Assembly (NCBI GenBank): GCA_047635955.1
Contig: JBLIGW010000003.1
Coordinates: 1 to 35,696 of the forward strand
Direction: 5' to 3'
From: Oceanicoccus sp.
Lineage (GTDB): Bacteria; Patescibacteriota; Gracilibacteria; UBA1369; 2-02-FULL-48-14
Length of the DNA: 35,696 nucleotides
Under the pieces are notes generated by a model. That model had not been told where the DNA came from. It saw only the letters and a list, made by a program, of their open reading frames with translations, and made no database searches. Position 1 is the first letter of the stretch; each line of letters starts with the position of its first letter. This document shows, one piece after another, positions 1-35,696 of the stretch. The position numbers and the translations under genes were made by a program.

Positions 1-1777
1 CGGTAAAGCTAGAGAACAAACCACTAGTAACAAGCCCACTATCAAAATTAAAACTTGAATCTGAAGCACTAAACACTTCCACAACCCCATCATTATGATT
101 GAACGTTCCTCCTGCCGTATGCGTCCAATCATCGAATAAATACATCGTTGTTGTCGGTGCATTGAAGGTCCCCGCTGAAATAATAACATCATTATTAACC
201 GTTAAGGTTCCTGCACCACTAGCATAAACCCCACCTGAAACAAGAAATTGATCTTCCACCGTCACTGCATTCCCATTTGGATCAAGTGTTCCTGAAGCAA
301 TGGTCAGATCTTGACCTGAAGCATTTAAAGTTAAATCAGAAAGGAGTGTCACGGCTCCACTAGTCTTATTAATCGTGATCAGACCGTCAAAGATAGATTC
401 AGCACCTGTTAAATCAAAATTTTGAGCATTTGTTCCTGTAAACTCAATATGCAAACTACCCCCATCAAAATCAGGGTGAATCAAAAGATTAGAAAGAGGA
501 TGAAGCCTGGAAGTAGTACCTCCTTGCTGCAAACGCCCATCCAAAAGATCAGTTTGATTCGTCACCGTAAGGCTATCACCCAAGGACACAATCACTTGCC
601 AATTAGTAGTTTTATCAATCGTAAGGTTATAAAAAGTTTCATTAGTAGCAACATTAATAGTAGTGTCTTGAGCTCCATCAAAAACAATCGTTCCATTGCT
701 ATGATTATAAGTTCCTCCCGCCGTATGAGTCCAATCATCCTCAAGATACATCGTTGTCGTTGGCGCATTAAACGTCCCACCAGACAAAGTGAAATCTCCA
801 TTAATATCCAAAGTAGCCGCATTTGAAAGGTAAGTCCCTCCCGAAACATTAAATTGATCAACGACAGAAAGAGCATTACCATTAGGATCAAAGCTACCAC
901 TCTGCAAAAGAAAATCCTGGCCTATTGAGTCTAAAGTCAGTGCTGAGAGCATAGTCAATGTACCTCCTGATTTGTTCACTGTGACTGAAGCGTCAATAAG
1001 ACCTTCCGCTCCTGTTAAATCAAAATTTTGATCTCCAGAACCTGTAAATTCGAGCTGCAAAGTATTCGAGTCTATAGTGCTAGCCACCACCACATCCCCT
1101 TGAGGTTTCAAGCGTGAAGTCCCCCCTCCCTCTATCAAACGACCATTCGTAAGTGTAAGCAAATTAACAACAACAGCGCTATCTCCCGAGCTAAGAGAAA
1201 GATAAAAAACACCATCCTTGTTAAGGGTGAAATTATAGAAAGTCTCCGTAGTATTTACGTTCATAGTCGTATCAGAAGCTTCATCAAAAACCACCGTTCC
1301 ATTACTGTGGTTGAAGGTTCCTCCTACTGTGTGAGTCCAATCATCACGAAGGTATATTGTTCCTCCTGCATTAAAGGTCCCCGCAGTCATGATGAAATCA
1401 TCATTGATATTAAAAACTCCATCCGCTGCCATTGTAACGGCTCCAGCAGCGATGTCTAAATCTGTATCTCCTATGAGCAATGTTGTCGCAGCTGCTTGAG
1501 TAACGGTTGAGTTATAACCCGTATTTAAGTCCACCCCAAGCACGCTCCCTGCAAATCCAGCATCAATCGTAGATGCAGTATCTGAAGTTGCATCAAAAGT
1601 AGCAACATCTGCTGAACCAGGACAGCTGTCGGTCGTCCAGTTTGCACAGGTACTCCAATTACTATCCCCACCTTCGTTGTCCCAAGTTATAACTGCTGCA
1701 TCTGCTGACACATTCAGGAAAAATGTGCAGAAAAAGCTCAAACTAAGCACAAAGAAATATCTAAAATTTTTTGGCAT
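1..1777 (-). CDS. Large secreted/surface repeat protein (adhesin-like, probably beta-helical), partial, runs off left edge
   Basis: Not in the ORF track. Manual translation from ATG 1777 gives MPKNFRYFFVLSLSFFCTFFLNVSADAAVITWDNEGGDSNWSTCANW..., open to the edge (>590 aa). Signal peptide, G/T/N/D-rich, motif DDWTHTxGGT(F/Y)NH repeated every 202 aa. Confidence 0.9.
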   Translation of the reverse strand, partial: MPKNFRYFFVLSLSFFCTFFLNVSADAAVITWDNEGGDSNWSTCANWTTDSCPGSADVATFDATSDTASTIDAGFAGSVLGVDLNTGYNSTVTQAAATTLLIGDTDLDIAAGAVTMAADGVFNINDDFIMTAGTFNAGGTIYLRDDWTHTVGGTFNHSNGTVVFDEASDTTMNVNTTETFYNFTLNKDGVFYLSLSSGDSAVVVNLLTLTNGRLIEGGGTSRLKPQGDVVVASTIDSNTLQLEFTGSGDQNFDLTGAEGLIDASVTVNKSGGTLTMLSALTLDSIGQDFLLQSGSFDPNGNALSVVDQFNVSGGTYLSNAATLDINGDFTLSGGTFNAPTTTMYLEDDWTHTAGGTYNHSNGTIVFDGAQDTTINVATNETFYNLTIDKTTNWQVIVSLGDSLTVTNQTDLLDGRLQQGGTTSRLHPLSNLLIHPDFDGGSLHIEFTGTNAQNFDLTGAESIFDGLITINKTSGAVTLLSDLTLNASGQDLTIASGTLDPNGNAVTVEDQFLVSGGVYASGAGTLTVNNDVIISAGTFNAPTTTMYLFDDWTHTAGGTFNHNDGVVEVFSASDSSFNFDSGLVTSGLFSSFT

Positions 1778-1838
1778 GAAAAAAAACTAATAATTCTCTT
1801 AAGATGCTACCGCATTCCCTCAGATATTCAAGACCTTT

Positions 1839-2648
1839 CTAAAATAGATGTCCTAACAATTCAGAGACAGAACTCAAAAATTGTAAATCCTCATCACTAG
1901 CGTTTTCAAGTAAATTACTTGCAAATAATGCTTTCAAAGATCCTTGTGTATCATGAACGGCAGAGAAAAACATTTTTTCCTCCTGAATAAAACTAGGCGC
2001 TCCTGCGCTAGCTAAACGGTTAGCCACGTCAGGAACTTTTAGCTGTAAAGCCTCAGCCTGCGCTTCCGATGACTGATACTGAGCCAATCCATCCATGTTG
2101 AAAATCACATGATCTCCTGGAACCACACGCTGCACTTCGTTCAAAATAGCTGGGACCACTGTCACTGGGTCACCTCCATGTTGAGTCGTAAGCTTAGCTA
2201 CATTATAAAGAGCTACTAAACGGGTATTCATAAATGCCAAGCGTCCATTTTGAACCTTAACAATACCAAGCGTAATTCCTACCGCAGCTTGCGGGTCGGA
2301 CTGAACTAAGTTTTCAAATTTTGCTCGTGATAATTTCAATAAATTACTATGTAGCGTTGCCACCACACTTGCGCCACGCCCTGAATCAGAGAGCAAAGCC
2401 CCTTCTCCAAAAATATCTCCTGCATTCAATTGCGCTAAACGTTTTTGAGTTCCAGCCTCATCACCTAAAGATTTCATCACATTCAAAGTTCCGGACAAGA
2501 CATAATAAAAGTCTTGAGTCCCTTCACCTTCTGCAACAACCGCTGTTCCTGCAGGAGCTTCGATTCGCTCCCATGTTTCTTCACCACCAAAAGTGTCAAA
2601 GATCATTGGATCAGCTAAATTGATAAAATTATTACGAATGTTTTCCAT
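1839..2648 (-). CDS. Cyclic nucleotide-binding domain protein with C-terminal GAF-like segment
   Basis: cNMP-domain motifs (EGE..FYYVLSG, GDIFGEGALL...RGASVVA), no Crp HTH. Start overlaps the pilT stop (TAATG). Confidence 0.8.
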   Translation of the reverse strand: MENIRNNFINLADPMIFDTFGGEETWERIEAPAGTAVVAEGEGTQDFYYVLSGTLNVMKSLGDEAGTQKRLAQLNAGDIFGEGALLSDSGRGASVVATLHSNLLKLSRAKFENLVQSDPQAAVGITLGIVKVQNGRLAFMNTRLVALYNVAKLTTQHGGDPVTVVPAILNEVQRVVPGDHVIFNMDGLAQYQSSEAQAEALQLKVPDVANRLASAGAPSFIQEEKMFFSAVHDTQGSLKALFASNLLENASDEDLQFLSSVSELLGHLF

Positions 2649-3706
2649 TATTCAGTTAGATTAGCGATAAGTTCTGGATCATGAGCACGAGAAAGCATAT
2701 CCCCTTCAGAGATTATATTCCGCTTATACAGGTCAGCCAAAGAAGAATCTAAAGTCAACATTCCATCTTCTCGTCCAATTTGCATCATTGAGTAAATTTG
2801 ATGTGTATTTCCTTCTTTAATACAGTTAGTAATCGCATCGTTTCGAACCAAGACCTCAATAGCCAAAACTCGTCCTGACTTATCTGCTTTTGGAATCAGC
2901 CGTTGTGAGGCCACCCCAAGCAAAGTAGTAGAAAGTTGAGTTCGCACTTGTGACTGTTGATGAGGTGGGAAAACGTCAATCATTCGATCAACCGTTTGCG
3001 CCGCATCTTGCGTATGAAGAGTAGCCAAAACCAAATGTCCCGTTTCAGCCAAAGTAATCGCTGCTGAAATAGTTTCTAGATCACGCATTTCTCCAACCAA
3101 AATCACATCAGGATCTTGACGAAGCGCCGCTCTAATTGCATTCGGAAAAGATTTACTGTGTTGACCCACTTCTCGCTGGGTAACTAAAGCCATTTTTGAG
3201 TTGTGAACAAATTCAATTGGATCTTCAACCGTAATAATATGAGCACGTCGAGTATTATTGATTTCATTCACCATAGCTGCCAAAGTAGTGGACTTACCTG
3301 ACCCAGTAGGGCCTGTAACCACAACCAATCCTTTGTATTTTTCAGTAAAAGTTTTAAGTATCGGCGGTAATCCGAGACTATCCATAGTTGGAATCTCCTC
3401 AGGAATACTTCGGAAAGCAACTGCGGTTCCATCTAATTCCATGTAAGCATTAATACGAAATCGCCCTACCCCTAGGACAGAATAAGAAGTATCCACTTCC
3501 GTGCCTTCGTGTAATTTTGCATATTTCTCTTCACCAAGCACCTGCTTCACTACCTCTTCCATCACGGTCTCCGTGAGCTTTTCTGCATTTTGCATTTCAT
3601 ACAGATCACCATTAGACAAACGAACCACAGGGACCTTCCCCACTTTCAAATGCAAATCTGGTGATTTACTATTTACGACTTCTTTTAAGTAATTATTAAT
3701 ATCCAT
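2648..3706 (-). CDS. pilT: Type IV pilus retraction ATPase PilT
   Basis: Walker A GPTGSGKST, TVEDPIE, AIRAALRQDPDVILVGEMRD, ETGHLVLATLHT. Confidence 0.95.
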   Translation of the reverse strand: MDINNYLKEVVNSKSPDLHLKVGKVPVVRLSNGDLYEMQNAEKLTETVMEEVVKQVLGEEKYAKLHEGTEVDTSYSVLGVGRFRINAYMELDGTAVAFRSIPEEIPTMDSLGLPPILKTFTEKYKGLVVVTGPTGSGKSTTLAAMVNEINNTRRAHIITVEDPIEFVHNSKMALVTQREVGQHSKSFPNAIRAALRQDPDVILVGEMRDLETISAAITLAETGHLVLATLHTQDAAQTVDRMIDVFPPHQQSQVRTQLSTTLLGVASQRLIPKADKSGRVLAIEVLVRNDAITNCIKEGNTHQIYSMMQIGREDGMLTLDSSLADLYKRNIISEGDMLSRAHDPELIANLTE

Positions 3707-3708
3707 AG

Positions 3709-4719
3709 TTATTCGTTAGTTGGGGTAGCAGTAGTAGTTGTTGTAGCAATGTCAGCGCCCTTAACAGGGATGCTTTCAAGTTGTTTCATATAGTTTTCAT
3801 AAGCGGCTGCTTCTGCTGGATCCATTCCTGGAGTCAAACCAAGAGAAGCTATAGCGTCAGCCACAGGCACTCCTTGGCGAACCAAAGTAGCGGCTACCAG
3901 CTTAGGGTCATACCAAACGGCCTGCCCTCTGTTGTAAAGATTTCCAAGATTATCCAAAGACACCAAATCGATCTCAGCTCCTTTCATAGGAACACCAGAA
4001 GGAGCAAGCACCAAACGAATCTCATTCGATCCCATTGCTGCAGCAATCCCTGTCTCTCCAGGACTCATCACGTTCACATCAAGACCCGACAGTTCAATAA
4101 CCTGTCGCATCAAAGTAATAGACCGATCCTCACCATCCATTTTTCTTTCAGGAATAACCACGGTGGTCCCCTTAGGCCATTGCATCTTAATCATATCTTG
4201 AACAATTTCTGTGTTCACCTCAGTCGAGTCATCCATCCCATTAATAAATTCCATTATTGACTGCCCTTTTCCAAGCATTTTTTGCAGTGCTACATCTCCT
4301 CTCATAATCACATTCTTATTTTCAGTTGTCGTAATCAAAGCTTTATTTCGCTCAATAAAGTCATCAAAATCAGGTGCAAGCACCTCCACTTGTTTATCTG
4401 TCACAGCAAGATCTGAATCTGAAAGTGCGCCAAAAATAGTTTCCCCTACCATCGCCTTAAAATAAATTCCCATTCTATCCTGCCACACGGTTGTTTGTCT
4501 CCATGCTGCAAGATCAATAGTTCCTTCAGCCGTTATAAAATCCGATTCAATTCCGTTCCCTTTAATTAAAGTTTCACGCAATGCTTCTCGAACACCTGGC
4601 AGGTCTAAAACTGAATCCTCAATACCTCCTTCTGCAAAAATAGACAAAGGATTAAAAGCTTCTACTCCAGAAGCCTCACCTTCTGGCCGACTTGGCAATG
4701 ATGGAGGGGTATTAGTCAT
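3709..4719 (-). CDS. Hypothetical protein in the pilT operon
   Basis: 336-aa ORF, ends 2 nt before pilT and overlaps the upstream gene; no recognised motif. Confidence 0.75.
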   Translation of the reverse strand: MTNTPPSLPSRPEGEASGVEAFNPLSIFAEGGIEDSVLDLPGVREALRETLIKGNGIESDFITAEGTIDLAAWRQTTVWQDRMGIYFKAMVGETIFGALSDSDLAVTDKQVEVLAPDFDDFIERNKALITTTENKNVIMRGDVALQKMLGKGQSIMEFINGMDDSTEVNTEIVQDMIKMQWPKGTTVVIPERKMDGEDRSITLMRQVIELSGLDVNVMSPGETGIAAAMGSNEIRLVLAPSGVPMKGAEIDLVSLDNLGNLYNRGQAVWYDPKLVAATLVRQGVPVADAIASLGLTPGMDPAEAAAYENYMKQLESIPVKGADIATTTTTATPTNE

Positions 4720-5020
4720 TCTTTTTTGCGTTCTTAGTTATTTCCTCCATTCGGATACTCAAACGTTCCAAACGTTGAAGTCTTCGAGTTGAATTAATTT
4801 GATGCTGACGAAGCCTTTTTTTCTCAATTGCTTCATAACCTTCTTTCTCCTCTTTCAAGGCAAAAACAAGTTCATCCAGCTTTTTCTCATCCAAATCTGA
4901 CAAAACTCCCAACCATTGAGATTCAGAAAGCGCAAGAACGTTTTGCATAGCCTCACTTTGACTGGCAAGGTGAGCCACGTTTTCTAGTTTTTGAACAAAT
5001 TTTTTGTCCGAATTTGGCAT
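4712..5020 (-). CDS. Small hypothetical coiled-coil protein
   Basis: Track ORF 4712..5050; ATG 5020 preferred because the TTG at 5050 overlaps the -10 box. Confidence 0.7.
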   Translation of the reverse strand: MPNSDKKFVQKLENVAHLASQSEAMQNVLALSESQWLGVLSDLDEKKLDELVFALKEEKEGYEAIEKKRLRQHQINSTRRLQRLERLSIRMEEITKNAKKND

Positions 5021-5049
5021 GTACTTAGATTTTTTAAAATCTTCATACA

Positions 5050-5078
5050 ATTATAGCAAATTTCAGGTTAAATTTCAA
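5050..5078 (-). promoter_or_regulatory. Sigma70 promoter for the hypothetical-hypothetical-pilT-cNMP operon
   Basis: TTGAAA-N17-TATAAT with extended -10 TG. Confidence 0.75.
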
Positions 5079-5081
5079 GTT

Positions 5082-6716
<1,635 letters not shown>

Positions 6717-6989
6717 TTATTCAACAATTGCATAAATTTCATCCTCTTCAAGAAGAAGAACCGTTTCACCATCCACTTCTAATTCCGTAGGACCATACTT
6801 CTTGAAAAGTACGATTTGCCCCACTGCTACTTGAGGCACCCCCTCTTTGGCCGCACCCACCGCAAGCACTTCTCCACGTTGAGGTTTGTCCTTAGCTGAC
6901 TCCGTTAAAAGAATACCTGACGCCGTTTGTGAAGGCTCTTCAATTCGCTTCACCACCACGTAACCAGCAAGAGGTTTAATACTCGACAT
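6717..6989 (-). CDS. groS: Co-chaperonin GroES
   Basis: IKPL..., TASGILL mobile loop, directly upstream of groEL. Confidence 0.97.
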   Translation of the reverse strand: MSSIKPLAGYVVVKRIEEPSQTASGILLTESAKDKPQRGEVLAVGAAKEGVPQVAVGQIVLFKKYGPTELEVDGETVLLLEEDEIYAIVE

Positions 6990-7007
6990 AATTTCTAGGT
7001 TATAAAA

Positions 7008-7034
7008 TTAGCACTCACTTATTTGTAGTGCTAA
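7008..7034. promoter_or_regulatory. CIRCE operator (HrcA binding site)
   Basis: TTAGCACTC-N9-TAGTGCTAA, one mismatch to the consensus TTAGCACTC-N9-GAGTGCTAA, immediately upstream of groES. Confidence 0.92.
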
Positions 7035-7061
7035 TTCTATTTCAAACTGAGTGGAAGTCAA
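7034..7061 (-). promoter_or_regulatory. groESL promoter
   Basis: TTGACT-N16-TAGAAT abutting CIRCE. Confidence 0.7.
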
Positions 7062-7129
7062 TATTATTTGATTGCGCTGAATCCTTTTGAGACTCAGGGC
7101 ACTGTAGATATTTTGTAGTTTACGGAAGA

Positions 7130-8656
7130 TTATTCAGCAAAAGATTCAAGTCGAAGATCTCTAATTACTTCTACTTTGATCTTACCAGGATATTGAAGTT
7201 GTTTTTCAATTTTTCGAGCAATGGAATGTGAAAGTTTGATAGCTTGCAGATCATCTACATTTTCTGGGTCTACAAAGACTCGTAATTCACGCCCTGCTTG
7301 AACCGCAAAGGCTTGAGTCACTCCAGAGAAATCTTTAGCAAGTGTTTCAATTTCAGTGAGACGCTTAATGAACTGATCTAAGTTTTGTTTATTCGCTCCT
7401 GGCCGAGAAACAGAAATCAAGTTAGCCACTTGAACAATTTTGGCTTCAAGTGTCGTTGCCTCAACGTCCGCTTCATTAGCCTCCACACAGTGAAGTACTT
7501 CTTTGGAAAGACCAAATTTTTTCAAGATGTCTCGTCCGATGAAAGCATGTTTACCTTGAACCTCATGATCAACCGCTTTACCAATGTCATGAAGCAATCC
7601 AGCCTTCTTACATGTATCTACGTTTGCACCAATCAAACCAGCCAACTCAGCAGCTAGGAAAGCCACTTCTCGACTGTGTTTAAGTACATTTTGACCGTAA
7701 GCAATTCTGAATCGAAGACGTCCTAAAATCTTCAAAAGATTAGGTTGAAGCCCAGCCACACCAAGTTCAAAAGAAGCCTTCTCCCCAAGTTCTTTAATGA
7801 GCATGTTCACTTCTTCCTTCACCTTCACGTAAGTTTCTTCAATACGAGCCGGGTGAATTCGTCCATCCTCCACCAAACGTTCAAGTGTGATTTTAGCCAC
7901 ATAACGTCGGATAGGATCAAAACCACTAATAATAATGTTTCCAGGCGTATCGTCTACAATAACATCCACACCCGTTACCGTTTCAAAGGCATTGATGTTT
8001 CGTCCTTCACGTCCAATAATTCGCCCCTTCATATCGTCTGCAGGGAGCGTAACTGAAGTGGTTGTAGATTCAACCGTAGTTTCAGATGCGTAACGTTGAA
8101 TCGCCTCAGCCAAAAGCGTTTTAGCTTTTTCATCAACTTCAGCTCGTACATCCGCTTCGAGCTTTTTAGCGTAATGAACCAAGTCATCTTTGAACTCAGA
8201 TTCGATTTGCTTGAGTAGAAGCTCTTTAGCTTGATCAGGAGTAAGCGCCGCAATTTCTTGCAGTTTTGTTTCCTGTTCAGATAGAGCTTTTTTAGCTTTT
8301 TCTCTATCCAACTTAAGTCCATCAGACTTCTCTTCCAGTTGAGCTTTTAACTTATCAAGCCCTTCTGTTTTTTCATCGAGCGTTTGCTCCTTTTTGAGTA
8401 GTCTTTCTTCCGATTCTTGAAGCTTTCTTCGATTAGCGCGTTCATCTCTTTTTGACTCTTCATGTGCACGGATTGCCTCACTTTTAGCCTTGAGTACGAT
8501 TTCTCCCGCCTTGTTCTTTGCGCTTTGAAGCTCTTTTTCTTGCTTCTGACGTTTCTTTTGCTCTTCTTCTTTAAGTTGTTGAGTTCGGATAAAAAATCCT
8601 GCTCCCCCACCAACTCCCAAAGAAAGTATAAGCAACACCACTTGTAGGATGCCCAT
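7130..8656 (-). CDS. rny: Ribonuclease Y
   Basis: N-terminal TM anchor, coiled coil, KH motif MKGRIIGREGRNI, HD motif LLHDIGKA, C-terminal QAGRELRV and YPGKIKV. Confidence 0.95.
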   Translation of the reverse strand: MGILQVVLLILSLGVGGGAGFFIRTQQLKEEEQKKRQKQEKELQSAKNKAGEIVLKAKSEAIRAHEESKRDERANRRKLQESEERLLKKEQTLDEKTEGLDKLKAQLEEKSDGLKLDREKAKKALSEQETKLQEIAALTPDQAKELLLKQIESEFKDDLVHYAKKLEADVRAEVDEKAKTLLAEAIQRYASETTVESTTTSVTLPADDMKGRIIGREGRNINAFETVTGVDVIVDDTPGNIIISGFDPIRRYVAKITLERLVEDGRIHPARIEETYVKVKEEVNMLIKELGEKASFELGVAGLQPNLLKILGRLRFRIAYGQNVLKHSREVAFLAAELAGLIGANVDTCKKAGLLHDIGKAVDHEVQGKHAFIGRDILKKFGLSKEVLHCVEANEADVEATTLEAKIVQVANLISVSRPGANKQNLDQFIKRLTEIETLAKDFSGVTQAFAVQAGRELRVFVDPENVDDLQAIKLSHSIARKIEKQLQYPGKIKVEVIRDLRLESFAE

Positions 8657-8667
8657 AAAAATGTTTG

Positions 8668-8828
8668 TTATCTCGGACGCAAAAAAACCTTCGGTCTAGA
8701 GCCGAATTTTGTGAGTGAAAGTAGTTTGTTTTCTAGTCTGTTTCTTAGTTTTCATCAAGGTTTTGCACAATAACTGTCCTTTCGCCTATTCAAAGGTTTT
8801 CAGGTCCGAATCGGTAAATAAAAGATCT
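8668..8828 (-). ncRNA. Putative 6S RNA (or structured rny leader)
   Basis: Minus strand folds by eye into a rod: TCGGAC/GTCCGA and AAAACCTTTG/CGAAGGTTTT closing stems, TTGTG/CACAA inner stem, internal bubbles. Position upstream of rny matches known ssrS synteny. Candidate promoter TTGCCA-N18-TACATT just upstream. Confidence 0.45.
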
Positions 8829-8952
8829 GCTTGCAATGTACCCGAGGCTGAGGCCTCTTGGCAAGCATACAAAACGTCAGATCCTTGTCAGAAAAAGTTC
8901 AGTTTTTCATCAAGGTCCATAGTGCAAAGTCGTAGTCCTTAACCCCAAAGCA

Positions 8953-10539
8953 ATGAAACGCATTCTCTCTTTAGTACTCGCCCTCTCCCTACCTGTTCAA
9001 GCTTTAGCTTGCATTCCTGTAGACAACATCCCACTTCATGTTGAAATAATCGCTGCCTACCCACAGCCATTAGAAAATGAAGAAGAATGGATTGAGCTCT
9101 TAAACACAGGAGATAACTCACTAGACCTAAGTCATTACACCCTGGAAGATTCAACCGCCAAGCCAATGACTTTAGACGGAACACTTGCTCCGAATGACAG
9201 CATGCAGATAAGCCCTCTAAGCTTTCAACTCAACAATGGAGGTGATGAACTTGCTCTCTACACTATTGAAGGTGAATTCGTTCACAGCTTCAGCTACGAC
9301 GCCAGTGAATCCGGCCAATCCGTCCCTTTAGACTCAAAATTTGAAACTGAAGACGCACCCGTAGAACTAAGTTCACTGCCTAGCGTATGGCCTGAGTATT
9401 CTGAATCAATTCCAAATCCAGAAGGAACAGACACCACCGAAGAGTGGATTGAGCTTTTCAACCCATATGATTACGCAATTCAAATTGATGGACTGAAACT
9501 AGATGACAATGAAGGCGGAAGCAGCCCCTTTGCCCTAACGGGAAGCATAGAAGCATTTAGCTTTTTACTTATTTCAGTCGAAGACAGTAAAATCAGCCTC
9601 AACAACAGCACCGATGAAATTCGCCTACTTCTGGAAGAAGAAGTACTTTGGAACGTATCCTACACAGATCCTGAAGAGGGACTGAGCTATGCCTTAGTAA
9701 ATGGAGACTACCAATGGACCACCCCCACCCCAGGAGCTAAGAACATAAGCAACACCACGGAAGGTCAAGTTTCTGAAGAAATAGAAATCACGGAAGTAAA
9801 CCCAAACCCAGAAGGGCCTGACGCGGAAAATGAATGGATAGAGCTCACCAATGGAGGCGATCAGAGTGTAGACCTTGGAAATTGGAGTATTGACGATGGA
9901 GAAGGAGGCTCTGATCCTTATATCATCCCTGAAGGAACCATTGTTGAACCAGGAGAAAGCATTATTATTGAAAGAACTGACAGTGAGATCGCGCTCAACA
10001 ATTCAAGAGAAAAAGTCCAACTTTATGACTTCATGGACGAGTTAATGGACGAAATTGAATATGAATCAACGGAAGAAGGTAAATCATATTCAAAAATCGA
10101 AGTCGAAGAAGTGCAAAATCTTCAAGCCAGTAATTCTGCACTTGGGTTCCGAACTAAAACACTTTGGGAATGGACTGAACCAAGCCCTGGTGAGGCTAAC
10201 CCAATCTGGAAAGAGTTTGTTGGCGTAGTTCAAAATTTTGATGGAGACCTACTAACTTTGATCCATCAAAACAGTGAAATGATTTTTGAAGCCTTAGATA
10301 GTAATTTTGGAGAATTAGTTTTTCAACCAGGAAACACCGTAATGATACAAGCCAGCCTAAACCAAATCATCCGGGCTGAACTACTGGAACAAGTCATTCC
10401 CAATCAATCAAAAAAGACCCCCTGGAGCTGGATAGTAATATTAATTTTGGCAAGCGGAATAGCTGCCTATGAATGGTATAAATACAAGAAACAAAATCAT
10501 ATAATGCTTCCCTACTCAAAACTCCTGAATCAAACTTAA
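8953..10539 (+). CDS. Lamin-tail-domain (LTD) repeat surface protein with C-terminal TM anchor
   Basis: Signal peptide, three copies of E-WIEL-N...L-N..D/E..L typical of LTD, C-terminal hydrophobic helix followed by basic residues. Confidence 0.85.
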   Translation: MKRILSLVLALSLPVQALACIPVDNIPLHVEIIAAYPQPLENEEEWIELLNTGDNSLDLSHYTLEDSTAKPMTLDGTLAPNDSMQISPLSFQLNNGGDELALYTIEGEFVHSFSYDASESGQSVPLDSKFETEDAPVELSSLPSVWPEYSESIPNPEGTDTTEEWIELFNPYDYAIQIDGLKLDDNEGGSSPFALTGSIEAFSFLLISVEDSKISLNNSTDEIRLLLEEEVLWNVSYTDPEEGLSYALVNGDYQWTTPTPGAKNISNTTEGQVSEEIEITEVNPNPEGPDAENEWIELTNGGDQSVDLGNWSIDDGEGGSDPYIIPEGTIVEPGESIIIERTDSEIALNNSREKVQLYDFMDELMDEIEYESTEEGKSYSKIEVEEVQNLQASNSALGFRTKTLWEWTEPSPGEANPIWKEFVGVVQNFDGDLLTLIHQNSEMIFEALDSNFGELVFQPGNTVMIQASLNQIIRAELLEQVIPNQSKKTPWSWIVILILASGIAAYEWYKYKKQNHIMLPYSKLLNQT

Positions 10540-28582: not shown

Positions 28583-29752
28583 GTGAAAAATTTCATATTT
28601 CAGACGGGTCACGGGAAAAGATTAGCGATAAAAGAAATCGAAGCCATATTAGGTGAAAATTCTGTGCTGGGAGAAGTTAACGACGGAGTACTTGTTGAAG
28701 CTGAAATTGAAGACGCGGTTGCCCTTATTAACACAATGGGAGGCATCGTACGGATCACCGAGGTAATTCAATCAGGCCCTAGTAGTATGCCTCTGAATTT
28801 TGAATCCTGGGTAATCCGATCACTTACTGATGCCTTTGAAGGGAAGTCTGGAAAATTCCGCTACGGTTTAAGTATCCACCCCAAATCTGACAAAATCCTG
28901 AAATCTTGTTTAATGGGAGCTAAAAAGAAACTGAAACCAATACTGGGAAACCTTAGGTTTGTGAACAAAGATTTCAACAATCTTTCTTCCGTTCAAGCCT
29001 GGCATGAAGGACTCTTAAAGGAAAAATGCATTGAACTACAACTCTTTGAAGGAGAAGATAAGTGGTTCATGTGTAAAACACTCGCAATCCAAGACTTCGG
29101 TTGGTACTCAACTCGTGATTACGACCGTCCTGCTAAATGTGCAAAGAATGGAATGTTCCCACCTAAATTGGCTCAAATACTGATCAACCTTTCAGGAACT
29201 AAAACTCATGTCTTTGACCCTTTCTGTGGAAGCGGAACGGTTATTCAAGAGTCCCTGCTGCGTGGACTAAATGCCACCGGTTCAGACCTTATAGGTGAAA
29301 TGGTTTCAGACAGTAGAGAAAACCTCGAATGGCTCGCAAAAAAAACAGGTAAAACTTTGGAATACGCTCTATTCCGAGCGGATGCCACTCGACTCACCAA
29401 ACAAGAACTACCTGCAGAACCATTTGCGATCGTAACCGAAACTTGGCTAGGACCACGGCTGAGTAAACCTCCAACTGAACTAGAACTACAAAAAATTCAA
29501 AGAGAAATTGAAGACCTTTATGAAGCCTTTTTCGACAATCTAAAACGAATTGTCCAGTCTCCAACTATTGTTGTATTCACAGCTCCTTACCATAAGGACC
29601 AGAACCTACGACACTTCCTTCCCAACTTGCCTGAAATCTTGGCACGATACACTAAGATTATTCCAATTTCAGATCACGAACGACCATCCATGTTCTACGA
29701 ACGAAAGAACCAACTTGTGAGCCGTGAAATTTGGAAAGTCATGGTAGGCTAA
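28583..29752 (+). CDS. TRM11-like (UPF0020) SAM-dependent RNA methyltransferase
   Basis: GMFPPKLAQILINL, DPFCGSGT, GSD, DAT. Confidence 0.85.
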   Translation: MKNFIFQTGHGKRLAIKEIEAILGENSVLGEVNDGVLVEAEIEDAVALINTMGGIVRITEVIQSGPSSMPLNFESWVIRSLTDAFEGKSGKFRYGLSIHPKSDKILKSCLMGAKKKLKPILGNLRFVNKDFNNLSSVQAWHEGLLKEKCIELQLFEGEDKWFMCKTLAIQDFGWYSTRDYDRPAKCAKNGMFPPKLAQILINLSGTKTHVFDPFCGSGTVIQESLLRGLNATGSDLIGEMVSDSRENLEWLAKKTGKTLEYALFRADATRLTKQELPAEPFAIVTETWLGPRLSKPPTELELQKIQREIEDLYEAFFDNLKRIVQSPTIVVFTAPYHKDQNLRHFLPNLPEILARYTKIIPISDHERPSMFYERKNQLVSREIWKVMVG

Positions 29753-30552
29753 CGAAGTGCATTGATGATAGTTTTAGCTTTCACACCTAGGACAAACATT
29801 CTCTGCTCATTCTCAAGCATCTTCATTTCAAAGATTTCTGAAGGAAAGGCATTAGATATTTTTGTAGCATCCGCTTGGCTCATGGAAGCAGTTTTTTTGA
29901 ATTGAGCTAGTTTTTCAAAAAAGGATTCTAGCCTTTCAGACAGATCCCTAGATGAATACATCTTAAAGATTAAAGAAATTAACTGCTGAGTTCGAACATT
30001 TCTCGATTCACACATAGCTTTGACTCTTGCTGGGATTACAGCAGTATTCAATGACTGCTTCTTGTCCGTAAAAAAAGTGCTACCCGTTGCATCTTTCAAC
30101 CTGAAAAATGACACATTATAAGCCGCTACAGTCACATCCCTAGCAACACATTCAGTGATCATACTCGCCCCCTCTTTGCCAGTAATATGATTAGGGTATT
30201 TAAAGATATAAATTGCTAAAACACAAACAAGCAATGACGTACTGCCTGCAATACACGAATTATAGTCAAACAAACATACCTGAGCTAACAATAGTGCATC
30301 CTCAATAGAAGTAACTTCAATGGGCCATTCAGGGTCAACAGGAATAGGTGGCTCATAACCAAATAAATTGACTTCTTCTTTATTTAAAGACTGGGAAATC
30401 ATGCTCTGAAGATCAGCAATAGCAAGCTTAACACCCCCATCTGAGTCTAAAGCAAGCCTATCCTCATGAGATAACGCTTGTAACCTTGCAATAATAGCTT
30501 CAACCTCAGAAAGGACTATACCCCCCTCACAATCATCTAATTCAATATTCAT
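29749..30552 (-). CDS. Hypothetical protein
   Basis: 267-aa ORF, convergent overlap with the methyltransferase; no motif recognised. Confidence 0.7.
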
Positions 30553-30620
30553 CTTCCTTGGGCAAAAGAACGGACTATCCGCCTAAGTTCGAGTTTTGTC
30601 AACTATGCTATAGTAAAGAC

Positions 30621-31097: not shown

Positions 31098-31172
31098 TCC
31101 CCTGTAGCTCAGTGGTAGAGCAATTGACTGTTAATCAATGGGTCATTGGTTCGAATCCAATCGGGGGAGCCA
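31098..31172 (+). tRNA. tRNA-Asn (GTT)
   Basis: Acceptor TCCCCTG/CGGGGGA, D-arm GCTC/GAGC, anticodon stem ATTGA-CT GTT AA-TCAAT, T-loop GGTTCGAATCC, encoded CCA. Confidence 0.98.
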
Positions 31173-31269
31173 ACTTCTTTTTCAGGTTACTCATAAATCA
31201 AACTACGTCTTAGAAAACCACTAAACCTCAGACCCTTGATTGAATCCCAGAATATGCTATAGTTGAAGT

Positions 31270-32493
31270 ATGAATCTTAAAACACTACTACTAGCTGGAG
31301 TAATAGCGTGCAACAGTCCTCAACCGACTGACGCACCTTTATCAGAACAAATTGAAGTCCCACAAGCAGCTCCACTTTCCTTTACACTTGGAGGTGTCAC
31401 TTTTGATATGGGCACAGAATCTGGAATGAATTCCGACCAAAGAAAAGAATTGATTGAAAAAGCAACTTCTGCCTACGAAAAGCTTCTCGAGCATTTTGGC
31501 ACTGAGCTAATGAGCTCACTTTACGTAAAGACAGTCAAAGTGCAAAAAGTCGAATCTAACTCTTTCAAAGCAAGAATCAACCCTCAACCCTGTAATTACA
31601 AACTTGAATTTGTAAATGAGCAATTAGTGCTTTCTATTCCTGACTCAGAACAACAAGAGCTAAAAACTTCAACTTCAAACACTTTATATGTAAACATTCT
31701 TGAAGAGGAAACTCTGCTCCATGAATTCATACATCTTTTTTTACAAGGAGGAGAAATGACCTCATTTGCATTCATGGAAGGACTAGCTCATGGCTTAACC
31801 TACCACCTCTACCCTGATAGTCATGAAGTACATGGTGAAGTAGTGGAAAGCCTTCAAAAACATCAAAACGCATGTATTAATGATGCATTCAAAAATGGGT
31901 GGGACACAAATGAATTAGACTCACAAGTATTTGAGGGCGGTGTTCAAGGTGGAATGGCATCAAGATTTTTAAGACCCTATTGGGGCTACAAATGGGCTGA
32001 ATTCTTTGAACAACACCCTAAGTTCATCACAGCCTTTTTCCGTAAACTCAGAGAAAAACGCGAACAGGGAACTATAGCCTTCACAAAAGAGCAGATCATT
32101 GAAATAGCAAGCGACGTTGAACCAGAATTTCAAGAGTGGATGTCAAACGAAGGAAGTTCTATTCAAGATCTTGAAACTCAAGAACGTGTCTTCGCAACAA
32201 AAATGGGAGAAAATATTTGGTTATTTAACTTTTCTACCACAGCAGCACAATCTGTTCTTGATGCTCAACCTCCTTGGAAAGGTGGACACATAAGTACTGC
32301 AGGGGTCTTGCAAATTCACAACAATGTAAACGGAAATGATGGCTATATCACAGGCAACCCAAGCTTTGGCTCATTAAATATGTCAGAAGATCCAGGACCA
32401 ACAACTTATGAAGTCAGAATTGGAAGAGATGGATCGATAACAAGCGTACCTTTCATGCTTGATGTAGATGGAAAATGCATGGAGCTTAATTAA
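31270..32493 (+). CDS. Lipoprotein with gluzincin-type metallopeptidase motif (cassette 1)
   Basis: Lipobox VIAC; LLHEFIH followed by downstream FMEGLA. Confidence 0.7.
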   Translation: MNLKTLLLAGVIACNSPQPTDAPLSEQIEVPQAAPLSFTLGGVTFDMGTESGMNSDQRKELIEKATSAYEKLLEHFGTELMSSLYVKTVKVQKVESNSFKARINPQPCNYKLEFVNEQLVLSIPDSEQQELKTSTSNTLYVNILEEETLLHEFIHLFLQGGEMTSFAFMEGLAHGLTYHLYPDSHEVHGEVVESLQKHQNACINDAFKNGWDTNELDSQVFEGGVQGGMASRFLRPYWGYKWAEFFEQHPKFITAFFRKLREKREQGTIAFTKEQIIEIASDVEPEFQEWMSNEGSSIQDLETQERVFATKMGENIWLFNFSTTAAQSVLDAQPPWKGGHISTAGVLQIHNNVNGNDGYITGNPSFGSLNMSEDPGPTTYEVRIGRDGSITSVPFMLDVDGKCMELN

Positions 32494-32526
32494 AACAGTT
32501 ATAATTGCGTCCAACTTGGGGAGCCA
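32493..32526 (+). repeat. att-like junction 2
   Basis: AAACAGTT-N17-GGGGAGCCA directly after the stop codon of cassette 1. Confidence 0.75.
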
Positions 32527-32660
32527 ATACTATTGTGTGTCGTATCAACTCCAACACCACATTCTCAACCTCTAATTAACAGGGAAGGTTTGTTAAATCT
32601 CGGTGAGCATCTTAACCTGATGTTGGGGTCGTAAAGCTAGTTAAGTGTGATATATAAGCT

Positions 32661-32756
32661 TTGGTTCGTATCTATCCTGGGGAGCCATACTTTTTTACAG
32701 GTTAAAAACACCCCCAAAACCGCCTACCCCTAACTGGAATGCGAAACTTTTTGCTA
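32661..32756 (+). repeat. att-like junction 3: degenerate tRNA 3' copy plus 78-bp conserved extension
   Basis: 32661-32687 matches tRNA 31146-31172 at 22/27; 32679-32756 is homologous to 35290-35371. Confidence 0.85.
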
Positions 32757-33380
32757 TTCAACTAAAATCACCTCACCATCCCTCAAAGGTTTGTAAGGGA
32801 TATTATTCTCTACACAATATTGGATTTCCTTATCAATATCTGCAGATTCAGGATGATCAGAATCATAATGTGGCAAGAAGGCATAATCAATTATGCCCAA
32901 ACCGTCCCATATGGTTTCAACACAATCTGTATATGGAAAATCATTCGGTTCATCCACAATATCCAATCCCTTCAACGAAGGTGAAAGAATACAAGCTCCA
33001 GCACTAAAAGCTCCATACACAAAATCATCTCTTTCACTTAAATCTTGAATAAGTTCGTCAAAACCAGACAGATACATAGCCTGCCGAAGCACAAAAGTAT
33101 TACCTCCACTTACCCAGAGCATATCCAGTTGATCTAGTTTTTCCTTTAATTCTGCTTTTTTACCAAAGTATTCTTTAAAATCTAGTAATTCTGGAGTGAA
33201 TCCTAAGCCCTTAAGACCTTCAAAAGCCAAGTCTCTATGGAATTTAACTTTCTCTGGATCAGCAAATGTAAAATCTAATGCATTCGGAACATAACCCACA
33301 CGTTTTTTTGTCTGTGCAAGCCATCGTTGTAGCGTTTCAGTTTCGTTCCCTAGTTTATAAGAAGATAAATAAAGCTTCAT
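32754..33380 (-). CDS. Peptidase E (S51) / class I glutamine amidotransferase-like protein (cassette 3)
   Basis: VSGGNTFVL, YGAFSAGA nucleophile, GLG...PHY. Confidence 0.88.
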   Translation of the reverse strand: MKLYLSSYKLGNETETLQRWLAQTKKRVGYVPNALDFTFADPEKVKFHRDLAFEGLKGLGFTPELLDFKEYFGKKAELKEKLDQLDMLWVSGGNTFVLRQAMYLSGFDELIQDLSERDDFVYGAFSAGACILSPSLKGLDIVDEPNDFPYTDCVETIWDGLGIIDYAFLPHYDSDHPESADIDKEIQYCVENNIPYKPLRDGEVILVE

Positions 33381-33423
33381 AGTTGAATAAAAGGTTGATA
33401 CTCAAATTCTACCATCTCCTCAC

Positions 33424-33459
33424 AAACAGTTCGAACTTCGTCCAGTATGGGGAGACCCA
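33424..33459 (+). repeat. att-like junction 4
   Basis: 33424-33454 matches 35265-35295 at 29/31; core variant GGGGAGACCCA. Confidence 0.85.
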
Positions 33460-33602
33460 TTCACGTTTGAAGTGCACCACCTAAGGATAGAGGCTAGGCA
33501 GCATGAAAACACACATATATATATTATGTTAAAGCAGAGCGGCTGGAACTCTACAACTTAACGGGCATTGACAAGTGCAAATTAATATGTTTTTATATCT
33601 AC

Positions 33603-34259
33603 ATGAGACACCAAATTTTAAGATCAAATGCTCAATTTAATGATGAGACAGACTTAATCAACTTAGTTGAAGAGGAAGGTTTTCAGGAATGGCTACTGAT
33701 AAAAGCAACAAACGATGGCTTAACTCTTTATAATAGAGAGGCTAATGATCAGCCATTTGATTGGTCGGAGACAGACCAGCAAATAAAAGTAAGCGTTCAA
33801 CAGTTTTGTTCAACAGTACATACATGGATCATTGAAGCATTTAATGAAATTTTTCAAAGTAAGCCTGAGTACCGAAGTTTAGAATTAGACCACTTTGACG
33901 TGAACTTTCTCCCATATATTGATGCATCTGACCACGAACCTGCTCCCTACACCTTTGACCACTGGCATAGAGATTCGTACAAGGAAGGAGTGTTTATGCA
34001 TTTCACCATTGGCACAAGCCAGTGTTTTACAGAAGTGATACCAGTAAATGTACAAGCAAATGAAGCTGAAGAAGTTGACGGTGAATGGTTGTTCCACGAA
34101 AGAATCAATAGTCAGGTTTCAAATGGGCAATTAGAAAAGCAGGAAGTCCCACATGGTTATGCCATTGCACTTACAATGAAGGATGTCGAAATGATCCATA
34201 GAAGAGGGGCAATACAAACAAACGGGTCAAGAATTGCAGTTAGAGTTTATTTTAAGTAA
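33603..34259 (+). CDS. Putative 2OG-Fe(II) oxygenase-like protein (cassette 4)
   Basis: WHRD (HxD), distal IHRR and terminal R in SRIAVRVYF fit a DSBH facial triad; family not certain. Confidence 0.55.
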   Translation: MRHQILRSNAQFNDETDLINLVEEEGFQEWLLIKATNDGLTLYNREANDQPFDWSETDQQIKVSVQQFCSTVHTWIIEAFNEIFQSKPEYRSLELDHFDVNFLPYIDASDHEPAPYTFDHWHRDSYKEGVFMHFTIGTSQCFTEVIPVNVQANEAEEVDGEWLFHERINSQVSNGQLEKQEVPHGYAIALTMKDVEMIHRRGAIQTNGSRIAVRVYFK

Positions 34260-34407
34260 AATGAACTTCATGCACATTGTGCACTTCCCCAAAACAGAGG
34301 GTTAGGTTGAGAGGCAAAATTGCTCACTTTCAAAGTTATAAGAAACTATGTAATGATAAGGATATGATTCCTATCACCTAGATCAAAGCTTTCAAACAAC
34401 ATTCTGT

Positions 34408-34438
34408 ACGGCAACCCAGCTGGGTTGCCGTTTAGTTT
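34408..34438 (+). terminator. Perfect 24-bp palindrome, probable terminator
   Basis: ACGGCAACCCAG-CTGGGTTGCCGT followed by TTAGTTT. Confidence 0.65.
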
Positions 34439-34509
34439 CCAAGCTTAAAAGAAAATGAATTTAAAAAAATCTGAGATCCCCCCTCTTAAGCGAGTTGAAA
34501 ACCTCACGT

Positions 34510-34556
34510 AGTTCGGAAAAGAAACAGAGTGGGGAGCCAGTATTATCTTCAGGTTA
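34510..34556 (+). repeat. att-like junction 5
   Basis: AGTTCG...(AGTT-N17)-GGGGAGCCA-N10-CAGGTTA. Confidence 0.8.
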
Positions 34557-34608
34557 AACTTGATCACCCTATCTTCAAAAATAGGCTTATTTATGGTATG
34601 ATTAAGAG

Positions 34609-35262
34609 ATGGCAATAGAAAACACACAAACCGAATGGGAAGAAAGCCTACATCGTAGTCAATCTACGCTGGATTCAGTTGACCCTGAGCAATTGCACGA
34701 AGGACCAGCTTTTGAAGCTCAAACCAAGCAAGGTGAAAAGCTCAACGTTACTACCCGATTCTACTACTTTAAAGGAATGGATTTTTCTCCGAGCGATACA
34801 CTAAAAAATGGCTTACGCCTTTACATGTTTGCTAGAGATGAAACAGGCCAAATCGTAGGAACAAGAGTCGCATCTATCTTTCAACTTAATCCAAAGACAC
34901 TTGAATGCAAAAGTAAAATTATCGTTAGAGACAAAGGTCAGGGCTTAGCATCCCCCATTGAAGAAACTTTCATCCAAACATTGCAGCACATTGCAAATAC
35001 AGAAAATAAACGCGTCATTTGGAAGGTCGAAAACCAAAATCTTGAAAAACTAGAAGCATATCGAGCTCAAGACTCAAACGATCCACTAAAGTTAGCTGGA
35101 ATGGAGGCTGAGCAAGAACGATGGCAATACTTATATGGAGAAAATGGTAAATTTGGCATCTCAAGAAATCGAAGGATCTTTATGCCAACAAAAAACGTAG
35201 ATACACCAATAAGTGACTCTCAGACAGGTATCCACGAAAAAGTAGAATCAGCAATGAGCTAG
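34609..35262 (+). CDS. Hypothetical protein, possibly GNAT-like fold (cassette 5)
   Basis: 217-aa ORF with its own promoter; KGQGLAS resembles the acetyl-CoA-binding motif A. Confidence 0.6.
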   Translation: MAIENTQTEWEESLHRSQSTLDSVDPEQLHEGPAFEAQTKQGEKLNVTTRFYYFKGMDFSPSDTLKNGLRLYMFARDETGQIVGTRVASIFQLNPKTLECKSKIIVRDKGQGLASPIEETFIQTLQHIANTENKRVIWKVENQNLEKLEAYRAQDSNDPLKLAGMEAEQERWQYLYGENGKFGISRNRRIFMPTKNVDTPISDSQTGIHEKVESAMS

Positions 35263-35264
35263 CA

Positions 35265-35371
35265 AAATAGTTCGAACTTCGTCTAGTATGGGGAGCCAAC
35301 TTCTTTTTCAGCTTACAGATACCTCCAAAACCGCCTACCCCCCCCTAACTGGAATGCAAACCTTTTTGCTA
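35265..35371 (+). repeat. att-like junction 6 with conserved extension
   Basis: Left arm nearly identical to junction 4; first 27 nt from the core match the tRNA end and downstream flank at 26/27; extension homologous to junction 3. Confidence 0.9.
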
Positions 35372-35374
35372 TGT

Positions 35375-35695
35375 TTAAGCTTTTGTCCATTTCATAATAT
35401 ACTCCTCACCCTCTCCTGTATCTTTGAGTTGTTTCACAAGAATTTCAAAGCCACACTTCTTATATACCGATCGAGCTGCAAGATTCTCCTCATCAACCGT
35501 GAGATAAACTTCACTATGCCCTTCTTGCTCCAAGTACTGAAGCATCAATTGAATGGCCTCCGTTCCATGCCCTTTCCCCCACTCACCCCTTTCACCAATA
35601 GCTAAACCAAGAAAGGTGTTTCCTGCATAATCATCTTCCCTTTTAGCATTAAAGTGAATACCACAGTTTCCAATCAATTTATCTCCTTCCACCTT
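35375..35695 (-). CDS. GNAT N-acetyltransferase (RimJ/RimL-like), 5'-partial (cassette 6)
   Basis: LIGNCGI, WGKGHGTEA, N.AARSVYKKCGF; frame open to the window edge. Confidence 0.9.
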   Translation of the reverse strand, partial: KVEGDKLIGNCGIHFNAKREDDYAGNTFLGLAIGERGEWGKGHGTEAIQLMLQYLEQEGHSEVYLTVDEENLAARSVYKKCGFEILVKQLKDTGEGEEYIMKWTKA

Positions 35696-35696
35696 A

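Follow-up and report, generated by a model that had tools for sequence, protein, structure and literature searches.

Organization of the tRNA-Asn locus

The window that we analyzed is a whole contig of 35,696 nt (JBLIGW010000003.1, here C3) from an 894,775-bp, 76-contig and 84%-complete metagenome-assembled genome (MAG) of the Peregrinibacteria/Peribacteria in the candidate phyla radiation (CPR), and its right end carries an array of small gene cassettes stacked at the 3' end of a tRNA-Asn gene. The tRNA-Asn(GTT) gene, identified by ARAGORN and Rfam at 31098-31172 on the + strand with its CCA encoded, is the sole tRNA-Asn of the assembly. Its last 9 nt (31164-31172) form a core, GGGGAGCCA, exact copies of which were found at 31164, 32518, 32679, 34531 and 35290, all on the + strand, and a variant core, GGGGAGACC, was found at 33449 on the strand of the tRNA. 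An initial annotation of the window had reported these recurrences and read them as the boundaries of an integron-like array. Their positions and strand were reproduced, as were the unit lengths of 1354, 161, 770, 1082 and 759 bp, with one open reading frame (ORF) per unit, one empty unit and genes in both orientations. The signal of the core is the clustering of its exact copies rather than the number of matches in the window with one mismatch allowed, which was seven and not above shuffled sequences (18 of 100 shuffles reached seven). In the whole assembly, the exact 9-mer occurred 12 times; nine copies were located on C3 and two further contigs, C57 and C5, one of the nine being an assembly duplicate, and three copies were located elsewhere. 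We propose that the last 9 nt of the tRNA are the equivalent of an attB or attI site.

The cassettes are given here on the + strand, each ending in an arm and a core. Cassette 1 (31173-32526, 1354 bp) contained an ORF of 407 aa (31270-32493, +) and ended in a type-A arm with core (32493-32526). Cassette 2 (32527-32687, 161 bp) was empty, and its arm (32661-32687) was a plain copy of the tRNA 3' end, 77% identical to the tRNA over 44 nt and without the extra spacer of the other arms. Cassette 3 (32688-33457, 770 bp) began with a conserved post-core module (32688-32757), carried a peptidase S51 gene on the - strand (32754-33380) and had at its end a type-B arm whose core is the variant GGGGAGACC (33424-33457). 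A 799-nt contig from a sequencing run of another study (run X4) spanned this cassette from 32693 to 33454, that is, from just past one core to the next, with 33 differences. Cassette 4 (33458-34539, 1082 bp) contained an ORF of 218 aa (33603-34259, +) and an atypical arm with core (34510-34539), and cassette 5 (34540-35298, 759 bp) contained an ORF of 217 aa (34609-35262, +) and a type-B arm with core (35265-35298). Only the start of cassette 6 was present (35299-35696): after a post-core module (35299-35377), the window ends inside a GNAT acetyltransferase gene on the - strand (35375-35696).

Within these cassettes, Pfam named the peptidase S51 and, for the ORF cut at the window end, the GNAT acetyltransferase; the ORFs of 407, 218 and 217 aa gave no family match in Pfam and NCBIfam searches. 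No integrase or transposase family match was found in any unit of the window, in agreement with the initial annotation. Its remark that stop codons lie beside the junctions also held: the stops of the forward genes at 32493 and 35262 abutted the start of the arm, and those of the reverse genes at 32754 and 35375 fell in the end of the post-core module. We also observed that two unrelated cassette tails, at ~34260-34296 of the window (the 218-aa ORF cassette) and at ~1770-1810 of locus L017 on C57 (a ParE/antitoxin cassette), had in common a stretch of ~36 nt with a small palindrome, TGCAC..GTGCA.

Upstream of the tRNA, a THUMP/Trm14-like methyltransferase gene of 389 aa (28583-29752, +) belongs to the conserved flank, with blastp matches of 50-70% identity to the loci of 19 relatives; its NCBIfam matches to TIGR01177/Trm14 were weak and under the cut-off. 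A contig of sequencing run X1 (depth 13.6, side 30) joined position 29751 to 30617 with one letter between and skipped 865 bp. The skipped stretch (29752-30616) holds a 267-aa ORF (29749-30552, -) without a family match, located between the methyltransferase gene and msrB. Upstream of the tRNA, this appears to be a polymorphism of presence or absence that is unrelated to the junction repeat.

Extent of the array in the genome

The initial annotation had called for the array to be followed beyond the window, and contig overlaps made this extension possible. The 3' end of C3 overlapped the end of C57, in reverse strand, by 127 exact nt, and the other end of C57 overlapped the start of C5 by ~165 nt with one mismatch. 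A junction profile search found six copies on C3 (including the tRNA), six on C57 and three on C5, one of the C5 copies duplicating the last copy of C57, and all junctions were co-oriented along the path from C3 through reversed C57 to C5. No match of the profile at E<0.01 was found elsewhere in the 895-kb genome. The tRNA-Asn is followed by 13 junctions over ~15.2 kb with cassettes of 0.16-2.8 kb, and the window contains the proximal third of this array. The presence of the array at the tRNA-Asn explains why the assemblies of these genomes break at this locus.

The cassettes on C57 and C5 contained GNAT and NUDIX genes, DUF4336, an 868-aa PEP-utilising enzyme of the PEP-synthase/Rph family (with scores far under the cut-offs), a ParE toxin with its antitoxin, a second GNAT, an FTR1 permease, a YibE/F protein and a four-gene unit. 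Past the last detected junction, we found genes for GST, TspO, DUF2461 and other proteins, and a DEAD-box helicase gene ~20.5 kb from the tRNA.

Structure of the junction repeat

The junction repeat is ~60 nt long, and the 9-mer is only its core; an arm of ~30 nt that resembles the tRNA 3' part precedes the core. In the arm, GTTCKAA, which is similar to a T-loop, is followed by a spacer that exceeds that of the tRNA by 5 nt and by TCCAAC or a variant of it, after which comes the core. At least three arm types were present within the array of this genome, with the plain tRNA-end copy at 32661-32687 as a fourth kind. In a logo of 86 non-tRNA junctions, the core was the best-conserved part, and it was followed by a T-rich stretch. 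The core was also the only part of the junction identical to the tRNA. The strong conservation of the core together with several arm types in one array fits an overlap region that has to match between recombining partners.

We also found a post-core module of ~70-85 nt that follows the core in a subset of junctions, both in this array and in many relatives. Besides the two copies in the window (32688-32757 and 35299-35377), copies were present at 79-174, 1670-1740 and 5884-5985 of L017 (C57). In the module, a T-run and CAGGTTAAAA are followed in some copies by a hairpin (TCGATCAT..ATGATCGA) and in others by a C-rich stretch, and its end reads GAACTTTTGCTA. Where a reverse-strand gene follows the module, the stop codon of that gene falls in the module end. 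We considered the module as a decayed 3' half of tRNA-Asn and rejected this origin, as the alignments were no better than those of shuffled sequences (z<=1.0 in 15 of 15). For an inverted copy of the arm beside the reverse genes, the minus-strand profile matches were weak (all E>1); seven of these weak matches recurred 31-32 nt past the core.

As folded DNA, three junctions of this array did not surpass shuffled sequences (z = 0.29, 0.35 and -0.68). In locus L075, two junctions folded at z ~-2.6, and this resulted from a local hairpin after the core and not from arm-to-arm pairing. Rfam revealed tRNA only and no other RNA family.

Distribution across relatives and metagenomes

The family of the window genome comprises 28 species genomes of 0.7-1.4 Mb. 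At 16 of the 20 tRNA-Asn loci examined from the family, at least one extra junction (E<=0.01) was present downstream. The maximum was seven, in G004, whose genome is a single contig. Among the four loci without an extra junction, two have <2 kb of sequence downstream of the tRNA. An iterated profile gave 120 matches in 41 sequences (the contigs of this genome, relatives and metagenome loci), all of them on the tRNA strand and none on the opposite strand. Outside the family, a tRNA-Asn followed by one or two junctions was present in two genomes from the same order or class, and a metagenome scan added 15 loci, including a 1.19-Mb contig in which the tRNA-Asn and 7-8 further junctions spanned 7.4 kb. 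The tRNA-Asn 3' end is a conserved hotspot across the family and beyond.

Two pattern scans have a narrower reach. The pattern used for the class-wide scan matched only one of this array's own junctions and was too strict for its counts to be read as a distribution. In a scan of genome contigs, the exact arm-core pattern retrieved six MAG records, four of which are labeled Candidatus Peribacteria, Peregrinibacteria, Gracilibacteria or Patescibacteria. An 8.3-kb contig binned as Pseudobdellovibrionaceae (L065) had 5-6 junctions; with cassettes 76-93% identical to those of Peribacteria loci, it probably comes from Peribacteria and was misbinned.

Some variants of the locus were also observed. 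On the minus strand, as stored, of a 41-kb metagenome contig (L068), a tRNA-Gln(TTG) gene at 4039-4113 was followed ~250 nt downstream by a high-scoring junction (3765-3824), which is either a case of a tRNA gene within an array or of a second tRNA serving as a hotspot. In two relatives, the tRNA-Asn was split near the anticodon by ~500-540 nt (L051 2973-3588 in G022, and G005:C16:15647-16228); the insert of G022 matched the group I intron model with 44.4 bits (gathering score 50; E = 7.7e-10).

Cassettes as independent modules

The upstream flank with the SSB and 389-aa methyltransferase genes is syntenic beside the tRNA-Asn in relatives, and the cassettes are not. The same-genus genome G001 shared none of the cassette proteins of the window genome, and the distance from the tRNA to the DEAD-box helicase gene was ~20.5 kb here versus 6.5 kb in G009. 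G009 is the closest genome at this locus and shared only the ParE/antitoxin cassette; the homology began in the core, and the preceding arm was of a different type. This ParE/antitoxin cassette also recurred in a further locus, L078. Recurring cassettes occupied different array positions in different genomes.

All arrays were compared with each other, and after two duplicate loci had been dropped, 73 cross-genome high-scoring segment pairs (HSPs) of at least 150 nt were obtained. Their ends fell <=10 nt from a core in 48 of 292 cases, as compared with the 1.1% expected under uniform placement, and nine of the 73 HSPs ran from core to core. The clearest case is that of L070 and L075, which have one 1181-nt cassette in common at 99.66% identity and no other; the two sequences are unrelated left of the preceding arm and right of the core plus 4 nt. 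Cassettes are exchanged one by one between genomes, with breakpoints at the core. The units are, as the initial annotation had it, bounded by tRNA repeats and stacked at the tRNA 3' end, and they behave as independent modules across genomes. It had also named what would speak against it, namely an identical gene order in relatives, breakpoints away from the core or a motif dispersed through the genome; the relatives had no common gene order, the breakpoints were at the core and the motif was not genome-dispersed.

A census of 74 cassettes bounded on both sides, taken from non-redundant sequences, gave a median length of 972 bp (range 94-9013, interquartile range 702-1376). One ORF of at least 60 aa was present in 44 cassettes, and three had no ORF. 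Of the 147 ORFs, 83 were on the + strand and 64 on the - strand. Among the top 25 of 70 cargo families, toxins and antitoxins were represented by ParE (9 ORFs), ParE-like (4), Zeta toxin (3), Fic/DOC (3) and Phd/YefM (3), and other cargo by GNAT (3), APH (3), peptidase S51 (3), SLH (3) and HAD (2). No hallmark family of an integrative and conjugative element (ICE) or an integrative and mobilizable element (IME) was found among these 25 families. We take this cargo, with its toxin-antitoxin pairs, kinases and GNATs, to resemble that of chromosomal integrons.

Candidate recombinases

The genome contained two PF00589 matches, both off the array, on contigs C45 and C75, and none on C3, C57 or C5. 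The C45 gene is a complete Xer-like gene of 307 aa, the C75 gene is of a second type and is cut by the contig end, and both belong to the Xer group according to NCBIfam. Against the XerA / 'integron integrase' model, a 271-aa relative of the C75 type scored 220.9 bits (cut-off 220); against TIGR02249, the integron-integrase subfamily, it matched in two stretches with 195.8 bits, under the cut-off of 265. No resolvase, rve, IS110, Y1 or DDE_1 family match was present in the genome, and the two Xer-like genes are its only candidate recombinases. The C75 type, which occurs for example at G009:C4, G015:C6, G016:C18 and G022:C3, was found ~0.4-1 kb from a contig end in four relatives, its neighbors differed between genera, and it had no match in G004; from this contig-end position, the varying neighbors and the missing match, it looks accessory rather than housekeeping.

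A PF00589 search of all 28 family genomes revealed no match inside any tRNA-Asn window; this search read through stops, so pseudogenes would have shown. In addition, a phmmer search with four recombinase queries against 1379 six-frame ORFs of all array sequences matched only two control loci. The initial annotation had supposed a recombinase acting in trans. The units are integrase-free and stacked, no enzyme was tied to the locus, and the two Xer-like genes on other contigs are candidates.

Integrase-bearing islands do occur in relatives at another tRNA. In G019, G009, G013 and G023 (L084, L085, L086 and L087), a tRNA-Thr(GGT) gene is directly followed by a tyrosine recombinase gene, and in L084 (4200-9242), this recombinase ORF has 312 aa, and after it come an ORF of 959 aa and another recombinase gene in the opposite direction. 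The L084 locus is a classical integrase-bearing island. We considered the integrases of these islands as helpers and rejected them, as the tRNA-Thr ends (GTGGCTCCA in L084 and GACGGCTCCA in L085) differ from the tRNA-Asn core; such islands are also absent from the window's genome. An autonomous viral partner was rejected as well: three arm-core scans of viral contigs gave 0, 0 and 1 match, and the lone match was a chance match in GC-rich sequence without an array.

Proposed mechanism and alternative explanations

At one and the same site, related genomes carry different cassettes. The locus therefore has the look of a site for gene capture, in some respects similar in function to an integron but lacking an integrase of its own. 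Probably, the cassettes enter and leave the array through site-specific recombination at the core of 9 bp, carried out by a recombinase encoded elsewhere. Each cassette would own the arm at its right end, and a free circle would carry arm, core and cassette start as its attachment site. A tyrosine-type recombinase encoded elsewhere would exchange strands inside the 9-bp core, between the cassette and either the tRNA end or any internal core, and runs of cassettes between two direct cores could loop out. With exchange at the tRNA end, new cassettes would enter beside an intact tRNA. What we infer in this scheme are the circular forms, the position of the crossover inside the core and the acting enzyme. 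Site-specific recombination fits with the core, which is invariant and shared with the tRNA, with the mixed arm types and the uniform direction of all junctions, with the tRNA that stands intact at the start of each array, and with the modules that run from core to core. More tentatively, we suggest that the locus could be a lineage-wide gene-capture platform of CPR Peregrinibacteria and a convergent analogue of the integron, in which the tRNA-Asn 3' end is the fixed site, cassettes of ~1 kb bring their own tRNA-mimic sites and a chromosomal Xer-like recombinase acts from elsewhere.

Several observations weigh against site-specific recombination as proposed. No recombinase was tied to the site, and G004, a one-contig genome with seven junctions, had a single PF00589 match, which means that an array can at least be kept without the second Xer-like type; with the window's genome 84% complete, the absence of other recombinases from it is not proven. 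In the Logan contigs of sequencing runs, no circular cassette or clean deletion joint was found: a joint from 31189 to 32715 and one joint that goes back match junction sequence on C57, and the remaining ones, apart from that between 29751 and 30617, have sides of <=44 nt and are too short to interpret. Of seven short metagenome contigs, none had terminal repeats. To the right of the core, conservation was weak, and no core-site dyad of the tyrosine recombinase type was recognized. The enrichment of HSP ends near the core follows in part from the conserved junction itself, and the join of C57 to C5 depends on the overlap that carries one mismatch.

The main alternative, which we consider unlikely, is homologous recombination by RecA through the 30-60-nt junctions after DNA uptake, with no dedicated enzyme. 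DNA uptake is commonly attributed to CPR bacteria, and the junction arms of ~30-45 nt, often >85% alike, are long enough for short homology. The lack of a recombinase linked to the locus also speaks for RecA, and the 99.66% identity of L070 and L075 runs through the whole upstream arm, so that the crossover cannot be placed. However, the 9-bp core is more conserved than the arm and is the only part identical to the tRNA, and the arm types differ within one array, so that neighboring junctions often share little beyond the core. The junctions are also kept across families, which suggests recognition by a protein, and all copies are co-oriented and found only at this tRNA. Another explanation is that integrase-bearing islands accreted serially at the tRNA-Asn and later lost their genes by deletion, leaving immobile or passively mobile remnants that resemble cis-mobilizable elements (CIMEs). 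For tycheposon islands (10.1101/2020.12.28.424599) and CIMEs (PMC5704250), the pertinent passages document accretion in tandem, together with partial copies of the tRNA and decayed elements; the relatives have classical integrase-bearing islands at tRNA-Thr, and cassette 2 (161 bp) is empty and ends in a plain copy of the tRNA end. Nevertheless, neither the metagenome loci nor the tRNA-Asn windows of the 20 relatives contained an integrase gene or fragment, and 44 of 74 units, with a median of 972 bp, have exactly one intact ORF; the missing integrase remnants and the one-gene units make decay distinctly improbable. Moreover, whole units recur from core to core in other genomes, once at 99.66%, which is unexpected of random decay products, and the internal junctions retain a cassette-type arm and core.

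It is very improbable that the repeat is mainly a transcript-level signal, that is, a tRNA-like 3' element or terminator in a static accessory cluster with no role in mobility. Arms do follow directly after the stops of forward genes (32493 and 35262), a T-run is often found after the core, and the conserved module abuts the stops of reverse genes. The forward arm and core, however, also occur upstream of the starts of reverse genes, as at 33424-33457 beside the S51 gene, where they cannot be a 3' element. The folds of the junctions in this array were no better than shuffles, Rfam gave tRNA only, and a static cluster leaves the shuffling between genomes unexplained. A purely RNA-level role is therefore unlikely, given the forward arms upstream of reverse genes and the unremarkable folds.

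CPR genomes are ~1 Mb in size and showed few mobile elements in the searches run, and the ways in which they gain and trade accessory genes are poorly understood. Taken together, the minimal integrase-free cassettes, their family-wide recurrence and an exchange whose breakpoints lie at the core point to a compact means of gene capture in such genomes. Were the array driven by a housekeeping-type recombinase, it would be a second, independent solution to the problem that integrons solve, and if the locus is a capture platform, symbiont genomes of ~1 Mb would gain a compact and exchangeable pool of accessory genes. The site rules are simple (a 9-bp core and a 30-nt arm), testable and perhaps reusable.

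Comparison with known systems

Integrons have an adjacent intI gene whose product carries an IntI-specific extra domain, attC sites that are imperfect palindromes folding as single strands, and cassettes that mostly lack promoters and are co-oriented behind a single promoter; integron cassette arrays without an adjacent integrase are known as clusters of attC sites lacking integrases (CALINs). The array described here is similar to integrons in its small, mostly single-gene cassettes, the site at one end of each, the fixed insertion end and the several site types per array. Like integrons and CALINs, it carries toxin-antitoxin and acetyltransferase cargo, and like CALINs, it has no integrase beside it. 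In contrast to integrons, there is no adjacent IntI, the sites are tRNA mimics with a 9-bp core and not folded attC, the genes point both ways (83 + and 64 -), and the insertion point is a functional tRNA gene. By the defining features as generally understood, the array is not an integron, since the adjacent IntI, the attC folding and the co-orientation were not found. The 'integron analogue' of the initial annotation holds for function only and fails for these three features.

A precedent for an Xer-like enzyme that moves integrase-free modules is given by the dif modules of Acinetobacter plasmids, which are described as accessory modules without integrases shuffled by the housekeeping Xer system at 28-bp XerC/XerD sites. 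The dif sites alternate in orientation. In the present arrays, by contrast, all 120 sites are direct, tRNA-derived and chromosomal, and the junction consensus lacks the XerC-spacer-XerD dyad.

Of the features of tRNA islands, the seat at the 3' end with direct repeats of the tRNA end was found and an integrase of their own was not. The additive flexible genomic islands of Alteromonas are characterized, in the relevant passages of PMC4898812, by a tRNA hotspot, cassettes that vary between strains, a downstream partial tRNA repeat and near-identical cassettes in divergent backgrounds. The same tRNA site in relatives, different cassette sets and partial tRNA repeats were likewise found here. The present arrays differ from what those passages describe in that they consist mostly of single-gene cassettes of ~1 kb with an arm and core at every boundary, and in that they are dense (13 in 15 kb) and located in a CPR genome of ~1 Mb, with no integrase in the arrays examined. 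The tycheposon islands of Prochlorococcus, as outlined in 10.1101/2020.12.28.424599, also combine tRNA integration and partial tRNA copies between units with a streamlined host, and older elements are pushed inward; these features are shared by the array described here. Tycheposons, according to that outline, carry a tyrosine recombinase and replication genes and leave fragmented-integrase remnants, whereas neither was found here and the units are far smaller.

CIMEs are defined, in the corresponding section of PMC5704250, as decay products of ICEs or IMEs that move with a neighboring ICE; they are bounded by att sites, lack genes for integration and transfer, and form tandem arrays by site-specific accretion at the ends of target genes, including tRNA genes. 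The att-type bounds and the lack of integration or transfer genes are common to CIMEs so defined and the present units. In the array, by contrast, no sign of decay and no ICE or IME was found, with no integrase remnant and no hallmark family of such elements among the 25 families listed of 70, although it may still descend from one; it also has 13 cassette-sized units in a row.

Literature searches on islands of Peribacteria and Peregrinibacteria, on CPR integrons and on gene cassettes beside partial tRNAs, which covered openly available main texts, returned no description of such arrays, and a search of the main text of the Peribacteria genome paper found no passage on one. The closest known systems are the tRNA-linked additive islands, the tycheposon islands and CIMEs, and compared with these, the arrays described here are denser, are built of minimal units with a site at every boundary and occur family-wide in the CPR.

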